A DNA stretch of 64,000 bases from a virus. Below, piece by piece: positions 830-57,943 of the stretch. The notes beneath the pieces are model-generated. The model did no database searches, was not told where the DNA came from, and was given only the letters and a program-made list of their open reading frames with translations. Position 1 is the stretch's first letter, and every line of letters starts with the position of its first letter. Location: positions 62,254 through 126,253 of the IMG/VR virus record IMGVR_UViG_3300037961_004224, one strand, 5' to 3'. The position numbers were made by a program, and so were the translations under genes.

Positions 830-3800
830 TTATGGGTCTACATCGGGAGGCGGTGATGGTCCGGGAATACAACCACCCACGGGGAATGGAGATATGGAAG
901 TAATAAGATACTTACCACCGCATGTTTTCATACCAGCTACAGTTGTTGTTAAAGGATAAACAGCAGTAACAACAGTTTGACTGTTAATAGTTGTTGTTTC
1001 AGTTTCGATGCCTGTTACAACACACATTTCCCAATTCTCACTTGCATCGGATATCTCAATTTTTGTTATTGCCGTTGCATCAGCAGTATCAACCGCAGCA
1101 CCTAGACCTTCTATTGCAAAATCCGCCCCCCAGTTGTGTTGATAAACTTGTGCAACAAAGATTTCTGGATCTAGACAACCATTTCCAATCTTTTTACCAT
1201 AATCAATATGATTGTTAAATATTGTTAATCCACCGCACACGTTATCGGTTGATCCGGGTTCCTGTGGAGATGCAAAACCTATACCCGGACCACTTATAAA
1301 TGAATTTATGACATCAGGAACCGATCTGTCGTGATATGGAGTTGTCAGTTCGCAAGCTGCCTGACCCGGATCACAACTAGTACTTGTATATTCCGGTAGT
1401 ATGTTCCCACCACAATTTAATGTTTGACCAACTTTATCACAACCTCCGGCCCCCATAGTCAATGTATCAAGTCTCAAAGTACAGTCATCATTGTCTGGTC
1501 TGCTAGTGATAAATCCACTACCAATTTCCAAATTTACATAAGTTCTATAGCCACCTGTTTGATCACGAATGTCAGTACATGTGTTGGTCATTGCCTTGAT
1601 TCTCATTCCAGCAGTGATCTTGTAATCGCATGATGAAGATTGATCTTTTTCAACTCTTATACCCCTGCCAAATATCAAGCTTTTAAATGGTGTTGCTTCT
1701 GTATAGTCGTTGGTCCAAGGTAAAGTGTCTTGACTACCATCTTGTGTAGCAACACAATCATTATCAGTTTTTAAATTTTGCTCATGCTTGATGAGATATT
1801 GACAATCGCTTTCTAGTTCTACATGCAATCCACTAAAGTTAAGTTTTTCATAATTTGTTTCAGTTACAGCATTTGAACCACAAAAATCTTCAGATAAAAT
1901 CTTCATGGCACTATCAATGCGGAAAGCACAACCAATTGGAGTATCTGTTGAAGGTCCACCTCCACCCCCAGTAGTGCGTTTAGCAGGCGAAGCTACAAGT
2001 CCAGTACCAAGTATTAGATTGTCAAAATGATTTTTGCTTTTATCCTTGAACATATCTGGATCTTCAGCAGGCTCTCTACCACAAACACCAGTGTTGCTAA
2101 TAAATTGATTTGCATCTATGTAGTAGTGACAATCTGTGGTGGTCATAGGCTCAGAAGGTCTTTGGGTTGATCTTATGCCACTTCTGAATATCAAATGAGT
2201 GTAATGATTGTATGTATCATCATCTGTCACTTCAATTTCACAGTTGCCAGTGTGACTAAGCAACATGCTTGAATTTAATCTAGCAAAACACCCATCAAAA
2301 TCAACAGAAAGCCCAGTGCCAACAGCAATACCAGTAACGGCTGTTCTCGCACCATCAGTATTTGTATTTGGACATGTACCTGACTGGAACATGAATATTG
2401 GAGTTGGAAGACCAGTTACTTTTACTGTGCATGAATCTTCATCATAATAACTAGATAAATATCCTCCGAATTTTATATGATCAAATACCTTATTGGTAAA
2501 TGGAGTATCGTTGCCCCCATCAGTAAGACTTCTCAAAGGAAGACAGCTTGATTGATATGTAAATCCATCAGCCTGAATATTCGCATTTAATGTAGCACCA
2601 CAAGTTCCGCTTGATTTTAACTGTAAACCTGTTCCTACAATTATCTTAGCTGCATTAAAGTCAGAAACTGAAACACCATTATTGCAAGTCTCAACAGACT
2701 TCATTACAACTGGACTTGGACTTCCACTTACTATAAGATGATGGCAACCATTAGGATAAGTACCAACTGTATCCCAAGTAGAAGAAAGAAATCCTGTAAA
2801 TGTAATAATTTCAGGAGGATATGGGTGGGTAGTTTCATTAAATGTATCTGTTCCACCATATTGATCACAGAAAGGCTCTGAAAGCTTTCGACCTCTTGTT
2901 CTAAGATAACTGGAAATAACACCCGTACAAGCATCATTGTCTATAAAACTTAATCCACGACCAATCTGCAATGTTTGTATTGGCTTTCTTCCTACAGCAA
3001 GACTATTAACATCACAGTTGTTAGACGACTCCACATTAATTGTATTGCTGCTTATACCACTAACCACAACAGTACAGTCTTCACCAGCTTTTGCGGTTGT
3101 AGAAAGTCCTCCAACAAATTCTATTTTGGAAATTGGTTTAGTGTGAGTAAATGCAGAACCGGGAGTGAGTGTTTGACAAGTATAAGATTTTGATGTACCC
3201 GCTACCGAGAAATCGCTCGTTAATGTGTAAGCACAGTCTCCAACCTTTGTTAATTTTATACCAGTGCCAACACCAAGGCCAGTAAATGTGTCTCTGGCTG
3301 CTCCAGCACCACCATCACAATCGCTCAAACCATAAATCCAATTTGGATTTGAGTTTACGTGTATTTCTCTGCCATTGTTATGACATACTCCGGTTGCCAT
3401 TTTCAAACCGGTTCCGAACACTATGTTTGTAAACTTTTTAAAGCCCTGTAAGTTTAATTGACAAATTTCGTCTGAACCTTTAGCTTGCAAATTAGTTGTT
3501 AGTATTCCAGTGCAAGTCTGTGGACTATCTCCTTCAGTAAATGTTAATCCACTTTTAGATACAACAAAAGTTTCTGCCAAGAAAGCCGTATCACGAGTAC
3601 CCTTATCGTCACAAACTCCAGACGCAAAGAATCTGAGTGGAGTTCTTGAGCCACTAACTGTTACTTTACAGCCTAGAGCATTTGGGCCACCTGCATCTTC
3701 ATATTTAGCACCCAAGTAGCCTTTAAATTCTATATTTTCAAATCTTTTGCGGAAAGATTGTTTTACTGCTCCGTCAGAATTATCATAATCTGATTGCTCT

Positions 3801-56909: not shown

Positions 56910-57149
56910 TCAAAAAAAAGCATTAATTTTTTGTTTTGTGTCTTTTATTGTTGGCGTATTTTTTTGGGATTTTTATGAAATTTTTTTTATGTAATTTATT
57001 AGGTGCTATTATTCTTACTGCCCTAACTCATTTACTGGTAAGGCTTTAGGGAAAATGGCCGCCCCGCCGCCCTAAGTCCTTTGATACCAACGACTTACGT
57101 CAATTACAAAAAACTTTTGATTTATTTCTATTTTAATTGCATAGACCCC

Positions 57150-57177
57150 TTGACAAATGCCGATAATTATGTATAAT
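57150..57177 (+). promoter_or_regulatory. Sigma70-type promoter P1 of the ncRNA unit
   Basis: TTGACA-16(CCGATA)-TATAAT. Confidence 0.85.
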
Positions 57178-57209
57178 GGGGGAGTGTTAAGGGAAACCAC
57201 GACACAAAC

Positions 57210-57228
57210 TGATCTTTGAAAATTTGGT
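57210..57228 (+). promoter_or_regulatory. rrn boxA-like element 1
   Basis: TGATCTTTGAAAATTTGGT, preceded by a GAAA-capped hairpin. Confidence 0.55.
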
Positions 57229-57258
57229 TGTTTTTTCTGATTTTGTTCAAGATACCCC

Positions 57259-57287
57259 TTGACAAATGACGATAATTATGATATAAT
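57259..57287 (+). promoter_or_regulatory. Sigma70-type promoter P2 of the ncRNA unit
   Basis: TTGACA-17(ACGATA)-TATAAT, with an extended -10 TG. Confidence 0.85.
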
Positions 57288-57313
57288 GATAACATGTTAA
57301 GTGAGTCTGTGAG

Positions 57314-57532
57314 GCGACTTGATGACGGCCAATCTCAGCCGGTCAGCTTGACTTTTTGATCTTTCACAATTTGGTAGTTCAAGGGCATGACCCGCAAACC
57401 TCGCCCAAGTCGCGAGTATAGCTGGCGAGCTATTCCAAGATACGCACCACACAACGGGTGAAATCTGAGGTAAAGGGTAGGTGATGCCGCTACTGAAAAG
57501 TACGGTAACGATTACGAACCCTCTCAGCACCC
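57314..57532 (+). ncRNA. Candidate structured ncRNA of unknown family
   Basis: Helices 57314-21/57406-13, 57418-23/57428-33, 57456-60/57528-32, 57465-69/57523-27 and 57474-78/57518-22; GAAA tetraloop hairpin at 57486-57506. Confidence 0.6.
57357..57375 (+). promoter_or_regulatory. rrn boxA-like element 2
   Basis: TGATCTTTCACAATTTGGT, 17/19 identical to element 1. Confidence 0.55.
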
Positions 57533-57545
57533 AAACAATACATAT

Positions 57546-57678
57546 GGGGCTTTTCGCAAAGGAGCAAGCCGGACGCTACTGCGTCACACAGTGTTTAAAC
57601 GCTATCCCTTTAGCGGGGGATGACCTTTAGGCGTGAGACGTTGCCGGTGTAAGGCGGGTTCGATTCCCGCAAGCCTCT
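57546..57678 (+). ncRNA. Minimal tmRNA-like RNA (tRNA-like domain plus short mRNA-like insert)
   Basis: Acceptor stem GGGGCTT/AAGCCTC; T-arm GCGGG-TTCGATT-CCCGC; GGA in a stemless D-loop; helix GCCGG/CCGGT enclosing a putative pseudoknot, TTAAAC|GCT and a 9-codon frame ending in TAG. Confidence 0.55.
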
Positions 57679-57727
57679 GCCCACAAGTGCCACGGGGGTA
57701 CGTTAAAAATGCCCGCTTACAAATATC

Positions 57728-57943
57728 ATGTTTGCCATGACCTCAGTCGTGGCGGTTCCTTGCAAGAAGTGTGAGGTGGTGAATGAACTCGAAGTAGATT
57801 TCGAGAATTTCATCGCTTGGCAGTCTCGCAAGATGTTGATCCAAGAAGCGTTTCCAACGCTTGATGCGGATCAGCGTGAGCTTCTGATCTCTGGCATTTG
57901 TCCAAAATGCTGGGATGAGATGTTCCCTCCAGAAGAGGATTGA
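57728..57943 (+). CDS. Small Zn-binding-like protein, 71 aa
   Basis: CKKC…LIQEAFPTL…RELLISGICPKCW. Confidence 0.75.
   Translation: MFAMTSVVAVPCKKCEVVNELEVDFENFIAWQSRKMLIQEAFPTLDADQRELLISGICPKCWDEMFPPEED

Follow-up and report, generated by a model that had tools for sequence, protein, structure and literature searches.

The question raised by positions 57314-57532 of the window, the 64,000-nucleotide (nt) stretch of DNA analysed here, which makes up the right-hand part of a 126-kb phage record in IMG/VR (IMGVR_UViG_3300037961_004224; G000), is whether 219 nt of non-coding plus-strand sequence amount to one structured RNA or to several. The stretch lies in a rightward early region with many small open reading frames (ORFs) and a strong promoter ahead of each, and the initial annotation, made from the sequence alone, had proposed a novel phage non-coding RNA (ncRNA) of ~220 nt or a domain of one ~430-nt RNA. 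What stood of that proposal is the presence of a conserved, uncatalogued structured RNA; what did not is the single unit, which comparison with related loci corrects to three separable parts, namely a leader with a boxA of host type, a core motif, and an optional bulged hairpin arm (Table 1). The stretch probably forms the untranslated 5′ part of a phage operon in which ncRNA cassettes are interchangeable. The 65-nt core is an undescribed RNA family without an Rfam counterpart, backed by strong comparative support, and in one group of large uncultured phages it is found repeatedly at the borders of genes and RNAs.

Relatives were gathered by neighbour-protein and exact-pattern scans, and each match was read in context. 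Homologous loci were L004/L012, L005/L013, L067, L068, L075, L080, L097, L122, L260/L263, L261, L262, L264, and L290, with L301, L303, L309, and L314 added later, all on uncultured viral or metagenome contigs; their common promoter style places them in one phage group, for which two complete related records of 163 and 174 kb are available. Across 14 aligned loci, the leader, core, arm, and downstream RNA are separately present or absent, and the core is near-invariant in every aligned locus. A 22-nt CA-rich linker joins the core directly to a transfer RNA (tRNA)-shaped RNA in L075 and L080, and in L122, L264, and L290 the core is followed by other hairpin modules and other T-arm-bearing RNAs. 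Other T-arm-bearing modules replace the tRNA-shaped RNA of the window in L080, L122, and L264, with the core retained. Linkers of the ACAAUAC/ACACAAC type separate all modules in the window, L075, L080, L122, and L264. Since modules are lost, swapped, or found alone in relatives, the stretch does not form one 220-nt or 430-nt fold.

The structure of the core was established by comparative analysis. From Ha, its consensus runs through a GCAAR linker, H2 with loop CCNAGYC, and H3 to a tail that follows UC(C)AA and is paired with the H3 loop, and the window conforms to it. In an 11-sequence MAFFT alignment of the core (A2), 99% of pairs in two hairpins are canonical, three pairs have changed on both sides, and none of 500 shuffles was as good. 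A covariance model built from A2 (R1) recovered 22 distinct core copies at 49-95 bits in 15 uncultured-phage loci, with one to four per phage record. The window scores 90 bits (57379-57450, E 1e-21), a value to which its own sequence contributed as part of the training set, so independent support comes from the 11 later copies at 49-63 bits, which are the tandem second copy of L013 (48.7 bits), four in L301, and two each in L303, L309, and L314 (50-63 bits). All 22 copies were then placed in an alignment fitted to R1 (A4), which favours the modelled structure, although the result already held on the MAFFT alignment. In A4, H2 is 99% paired with three covarying pairs, one of which occurs as UA, CG, AU, and GC, and H3 (57418-21 : 57430-33) is 100% paired with two covarying pairs. 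Compensatory changes thus affect five of nine stem pairs, a score reached by none of 500 shuffles, and pairing falls to 29-46% when the partner is shifted by one to three columns. The 6-bp hairpin of the initial annotation is H3, with compensatory changes, and the covariation among homologs that it had named as a check is present in H2, H3, and the pseudoknot.

The pseudoknot forms between the H3 loop and a tail located 5-9 nt past H3, beyond an A-rich linker (UCAAAA or UCAAGAUA). At least 10 different helices occur at this position, such as GGCGGU:ACCGCC, CCGCU:AGCGG, GCCCC:GGGGC, GCUG:CAGC, and GCCG:CGGC, and the H3 loops pair better with their own tails than with those of other copies in 5000 of 5000 permutations. 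The layout matches a classical H-type pseudoknot: a first stem of 4-6 bp is followed by 1-2 nt, a second stem of 3-6 bp, and then 5-9 nt. Hairpin Ha consists of GGG, a variable loop of 5-6 nt, and CCC; it and the GCAAR linker are sequence-invariant and therefore yield no covariation information on Ha. Around 30 bases at the junctions and loops of the core are invariant, and the G-U pairs in H2, S2, and the bulged arm are compatible with the plus strand only. Three other pairings were tried and rejected: an HDV (hepatitis delta virus)-like nested double pseudoknot and a helix of motif positions 1-7 with 13-19, neither of which fitted by inspection and both of which clash with the covarying H2, and a CUUG/CAAG loop pairing, which is disrupted in the window itself. 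No second core copy was found in the window's genome by nhmmer or the covariance model, and the longest complement in the phage genome to the invariant 5′ segment, considered as an antisense seed, is at most 11 nt. R1 can be used for wider searches.

Copies of the core occupy several kinds of position. At window-type loci, the core lies 53-94 nt past P2, directly behind boxA, and heads the ncRNA array, and elsewhere it stands alone between protein genes. In six copies outside the window type, the UAG of the upstream ORF ends on the first G of the motif, and in L067 the upstream UAA ends 1 nt before it. The next start codon lies 24-29 nt downstream across an A/U-rich stretch in five copies, and a U-run lies 3′ of the pseudoknot in about nine. 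Beyond the copy in L261 come U8, a second hairpin, and the next promoter; this copy stands at an operon end. L301 has four copies within 3.6 kb. A Pistol ribozyme (RF02679, 47.7 bits) lies between genes at L260:2046-2107 (plus strand), 1.3 kb from the motif copy of L260, in a slot of the type used by the motif, with a promoter, a small ORF, and then an RNA element; no match to RF02679 was found in the window, in its full record, or in three other related records. No homologue of the proteins encoded on either side of the L067 copy is present in the genome of the window.

Table 1. Features of the locus, with positions in the window.
Feature	Position	Strand	Description
Promoter P1	57150-57177	+	TTGACA-16-TATAAT, 12/12 consensus; outside the 219-nt stretch; its short leader carries boxA copy 1
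BoxA copy 1	57210-57228	+	TGATCTTTGAAAATTTGGT; in the P1 leader; 1 mismatch to the Planctomycetota rrn boxA 19-mer
Promoter P2	57259-57287	+	TTGACA-17-TATAAT with TG extension, 12/12 consensus
Leader	57294-57382	+	Hairpin and boxA copy 2
Leader hairpin	57323-57345	+	UGAC-GGC / GCC-G-GUCA, loop CAAUCUCA; boxB position 5′ of boxA; read from the sequence
BoxA copy 2	57357-57375	+	TGATCTTTCACAATTTGGT; within the 219-nt stretch; 1 mismatch to the Planctomycetota rrn boxA 19-mer
Core motif	57383-57447	+	~65 nt; three hairpins and an H-type pseudoknot
Hairpin Ha	57383-85 : 57391-93	+	GGG : CCC; sequence-invariant; followed by linker GCAAAC
Hairpin H2	57400-04 : 57412-16	+	Loop CCAAGUC; covarying
Hairpin H3	57418-23 : 57428-33	+	Covarying; 6 bp with 4-nt loop in the window lineage
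Pseudoknot S2	57425-27 : 57443-45	+	Loop GCG : CGC; 3 bp in the window lineage
Optional bulged hairpin (arm)	57456-57532	+	77 nt, ~28 bp with bulges; GAAA-capped tip (loop 57495-98)
CA-rich linker	57533-57546	+	AAACAAUACAUAU; precedes the tRNA-shaped RNA
tRNA-shaped RNA	57547-57678	+	T-arm and acceptor visible; neighbour, separate fold

With its boxA, the leader adds a new example of a known device. The boxA 19-mer TGATCTTTGACAATTTGGT, scanned against one genome per prokaryotic species, was found on at least 120 genome contigs, and almost all of the 80 inspected belong to Planctomycetota, mainly Pirellulales. In those genomes it lies 170-330 nt 5′ of the 16S start or after tRNA-Ile/tRNA-Ala in the 16S-23S spacer, both of which are classical placements of boxA, and it also occurs inside large tRNA arrays. 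The boxA sequence therefore points to a probable Planctomycetota host, providing a clue for phages that have no cultured relatives, and suggests that these phages copy the ribosomal RNA (rRNA) boxA of that host to drive arrays of small-RNA cassettes. The window boxA region is also identical at 15 of 20 positions to that of Escherichia coli rrnH, whose leader was fetched for comparison. Copy 2 lies 63 nt past the predicted P2 start with ~320 nt of ncRNA beyond it, and the 29-nt segment that holds it is deleted in L004 and L080. In rrn leaders and spacers, boxA directs NusB/NusE-dependent antitermination (PMC3177189, PMC4807359), and by this established biology the phage boxA would recruit NusB/NusE and shield the untranslated transcript from Rho. 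Like its rrn counterparts, it is promoter-proximal on an untranslated and highly structured transcript, behind tandem strong promoters and with a hairpin ahead of it in the place of boxB; unlike them, it is phage-encoded, heads an array of small ncRNAs rather than rRNA, and is dispensable in one copy in close relatives. The hairpin in the window leader is weakly suggested to be a boxB-position element, and L097 has a similar loop (GAUCUCAG) on a different stem.

Further observations were made on boxA and its surroundings. The P1 leaders of L004, L080, L097, L122, L129, L136, and L264 share a conserved long hairpin (GCGAG...CCC-loop-GGG...CUCGC) in the boxB position, directly 5′ of the first boxA (for example, L122:10150-10210), and the P1 leader of the window has a short unrelated sequence in its place (57184-57209). 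The exact 19-nt boxA lies between tRNA genes of long arrays, typically tRNA-Thr/tRNA-Gly, in Pirellulales genomes (L155, L160, L174, and others) and also in IMG/VR contigs L124, L127, L130, L134, and L138, some of which are 340-530 kb long. These contigs may be Planctomycetota jumbo phages or misfiled host DNA.

The bulged arm is a stable fold with a narrow distribution. In its minimum free energy (MFE) structure, 57518-57532 is paired to three segments separated by 4-nt bulges (57456-60, 57465-69, and 57474-78), and the MFE of -32.9 kcal/mol (z-score -4.48) was matched by none of 200 shuffles, which bears out the 15-nt strand, three 5-bp segments, and GAAA-capped arm described in the initial annotation. 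The arm occurs only in the window, L068, L004, and L097, is absent from L075, L080, L122, L264, L005, and L067, and has no clear counterpart beyond the closest relatives. In L004 and L097, its tip is swapped for a shorter UCCG-looped hairpin with the hairpin retained, and in L068 a G-U pair is changed to G-C. The arm is thus restricted to one lineage; it would be one of many interchangeable cassettes in these operons and possibly acts as an RNase III-type site or as a stabiliser.

From these parts, the following mechanism is proposed. Host RNA polymerase would start at the two consensus sigma70 promoters P1 and P2, and boxA, on emerging from the polymerase, would bind NusB and NusE (S10) and make the untranslated transcript resistant to Rho. 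The core motif would act in cis, marking or protecting RNA ends when the long transcript is cut, and the arm, where present, would offer a site for an RNase III-type double-strand nuclease or stabilise the RNA. RNase P would then cut at the 5′ end of the tRNA-shaped RNA (~57547) and free the whole leader. For the core, the reading tentatively favoured is thus that of a cis-acting transcript-boundary element for processing or stability, because it alone fits the head of the array, the intercistronic slots, and the operon end together.

Several points weigh against this scheme. The boundary function is drawn from genomic context alone, and the promoters used, the processing sites, and the ends of the RNAs are predictions. 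The invariant bases (GGG/CCC of Ha, the H2 loop, and UUCAA) would be just as compatible with a specific protein site or with a catalytic core, the pseudoknot of the window lineage has only 3 bp (GCG:CGC) and is upheld mainly by analogy with L314, where GAG:CUC occupies its position, and the lower 15 bp of the arm are invariant and hence show no covariation. Each boxA copy has one mismatch, and the P2 copy is lost in L004 and L080; assignment to a Planctomycetota host is based on 80 inspected of at least 120 matches, and the phage GC content of 36% is low for Planctomycetota.

Two phage systems resemble the proposed arrangement. The early region of phage T7 has host promoters, a boxA, and intercistronic RNase III hairpins, and the locus described here likewise has strong host-type promoters and boxA followed by structured intercistronic elements, which would set the RNA ends and stabilise them; the 77-nt arm of the window appears similar to an irregular RNase III hairpin of the T7 type. 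The recurring element, in contrast to T7, is a small pseudoknotted motif with no long duplex. The stable RNAs of the T4 and T5 tRNA regions (species 1/2; T5 RNA1/2) are also small, structured, and co-transcribed with tRNA-shaped RNAs, with presumed release by RNase P; the array described here differs in having boxA and a conserved pseudoknot motif at its head and cassettes that are shuffled between close relatives.

Among the other readings of the core, the one that survives best, while still unlikely, is a processive antitermination RNA comparable to put or nut, in which the nascent fold would bind the polymerase, alone or with a phage N-like protein on the invariant H2 loop, and take it past terminators and Rho sites. 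In the window the core directly follows boxA, and in lambda nut sites boxB follows boxA. The put RNAs of HK022 are ~70 nt long, form two stem-loops, and lie in the early transcript after the promoter or behind the first gene (PMC9378689). Their hallmark is factor-independent read-through of terminators by way of the zinc-binding domain of the RNA polymerase beta-prime subunit. The core is close to them in size, and its copies are placed as put is, either directly past an early promoter or 180-370 nt further on with a small first ORF in between. However, the core has three hairpins and an extra H-type pseudoknot, and no sequence relation to put was found in a comparison made with its description only. 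Furthermore, the L261 copy stands at an operon end before U8 and the next promoter, several copies are without boxA, and up to four copies occur per genome, with those of L301 in excess of what antitermination would need.

A new class of small self-cleaving ribozyme, which would cut polycistronic early transcripts and the ncRNA array, is improbable. The compact, ~65-nt pseudoknotted fold with its invariant junctions and loops would suit such an activity, as would the several copies per genome in intergenic slots of phages and the Pistol ribozyme in an equivalent slot of L260. Work by Weinberg et al. 2015 is said to have discovered earlier ribozyme classes through such genomic neighbourhoods. 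In the core, as in Pistol, the loop of a small hairpin is paired to a strand further downstream, with an A-rich linker in between, but the core does not match RF02679, has two extra conserved hairpins upstream, and has nothing conserved 3′ of the pseudoknot. Neither Rfam ribozyme matches at E≤10 nor circularly permuted forms were seen, the invariant bases suit a protein site equally, and the prior for a new class is low. A more specific version, rated lower still, has the ribozyme cut at the 5′ edge of the motif, on the G that ends the upstream UAG in six copies, which would free the downstream RNAs, leave the upstream message without a stop codon, and couple processing to ribosome rescue.

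A translational operator is about as improbable as a ribozyme. Here the pseudoknot would nucleate a phage protein that binds RNA or single-stranded DNA and spreads over the unstructured A/U-rich stretch up to the following ribosome-binding site, a model known from T4 gene 32. The unstructured, A/U-rich 24-29 nt between the pseudoknot and the next start codon in five copies would fit this model, and the motif recurs before different genes in the manner of a regulon, but in the window and its kin it is followed by ncRNA modules and no translated gene, and in L261 by a terminator-like run. The RNA is short and can be tested directly for self-cleavage, antitermination, and protein binding, and there is a small chance that it represents a new class of ribozyme or antiterminator.

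Very unlikely is the reading of the initial annotation, in which an 8-bp helix closes one ~220-nt ncRNA, or a domain of a ~430-nt RNA extending through the tRNA-like end. The helix does exist (GCGACUUG at 57314-57321 with CAAGUCGC at 57406-57413), the MFE fold of the 219 nt uses it and contains all helices named earlier at a stability modestly above shuffles (z-score -2.48), and all parts lie on one predicted transcript. Its support fails nonetheless, as a perfect helix of at least 8 bp appears in 68 of 300 dinucleotide shuffles (23%), which is chance level, and it overlaps the loop and two stem bases of the covarying H2; at chance frequency and in conflict with H2, it gives no ground for treating the stretch as one unit. 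The fold of the whole 407-nt transcript is no more stable than its shuffles (z-score -0.77), lacks the helix, and forms H2 instead. Among relatives, conservation of the 5′ partner is confined to near-identical leaders, and in L080, L122, L264, and L290 a G-to-A change at the helix terminus is uncompensated. With its parts varying independently as well, the single RNA is largely refuted in both versions.

Hardly credible is a DNA-level site or small protein gene, for although a minus-strand ORF of 77 amino acids (57297-57530) spans the stretch almost exactly and AAGTCG of the H2 loop resembles half of a palindromic repeat of the phage, neither this ORF nor a 21-codon leaderless ORF at P2 has family matches, indels in L004 break the frame, the stems covary instead of conserving sequence, and the G-U pairs work on the plus strand only.

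The remaining properties of the locus agree with the initial annotation, which had called the stretch GC-rich, free of credible ORFs, and without the hallmarks of a known RNA family. Its GC content is 51% against 36% for the genome. No supported ORF was found from ~57294 to 57727, and searches of Pfam and PHROGs returned no matches for the two ORFs named above or for a plus-strand ORF of 49 amino acids; indels of 29, 1, and 11 nt between close relatives would disrupt any reading frame. Rfam, whose families include RNase P, SRP, 6S, tmRNA, riboswitches, known ribozymes, and GOLLD/ROOL, gave no matches at the gathering threshold in the whole window and only noise at E≤10 over 57100-57800 (E 1.8-9). 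ARAGORN found no tRNA or transfer-messenger RNA in the window, the whole 126-kb record, or the homologous loci, and blastn found no match to the locus in GenBank phages or E. coli genomes. The P2 transcript is predicted from the position of the -10 element to start near 57294, and the tandem P1/P2 arrangement is also found in L004, L068, L075, L080, L097, L122, L264, and L290. Between boxA copy 1 and the -35 element of P2, the window is T-rich and UP-element-like (57229-57258), comparable to rrn P1 promoters.

Exact-pattern scans also returned chance matches, which were dropped after their flanks were read: L010 and L011 (coding ATG context), all 51 of L014-L065, 27 of 32 metagenome loci, and, in two scans of genomes, 22 of 22 and 35 of 36 loci. 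About 12 of those 35 are a palindromic intergenic repeat of Rhizobiales (GGGCTTGACCCGGNATCC...GCCCAAGTCCTTGGGCTG) in Rhizobium, Hoeflea, and Agrobacterium (L265, L266, L273, L275, L280, L283, L284, L286, L287, and L300), a repeat with no relation to the phage motif that was a chance match to the relaxed pattern.

Other features were observed around motif copies and arrays in the relatives. In L013, two diverged tandem copies lie ~25 nt apart on the minus strand (3548-3618 and 3451-3524); the upstream one has lost the GGGC start and retains H2, H3, and the pseudoknot, formed by other base pairs. A repeat, UAGGAUUAAGAGUCACUG, present in up to three tandem units of ~48 nt, lies 15-25 nt upstream of four motif copies (L303:10-225 on the minus strand, L301:5035-5165, L309:8490-8615, and L261:2080-2210), and the non-coding stretch ahead of the motif at these loci is ~100-300 nt long. 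On the reverse strand of L264, a long array of ncRNA cassettes lies 3′ of the motif in an order shuffled relative to L122 and L290; among the cassettes are a second tRNA-shaped RNA and an RNA whose two T-arms are identical (GCGAGGGUUCGACUCCCUC in each). In the window, the tRNA-shaped RNA is followed by a 33-nt insert (AGTGCCACGGGGGTAC..., 57683-57715) that is shared by L005; L004 and L068 are without it, and an ORF of 71 amino acids begins immediately there.
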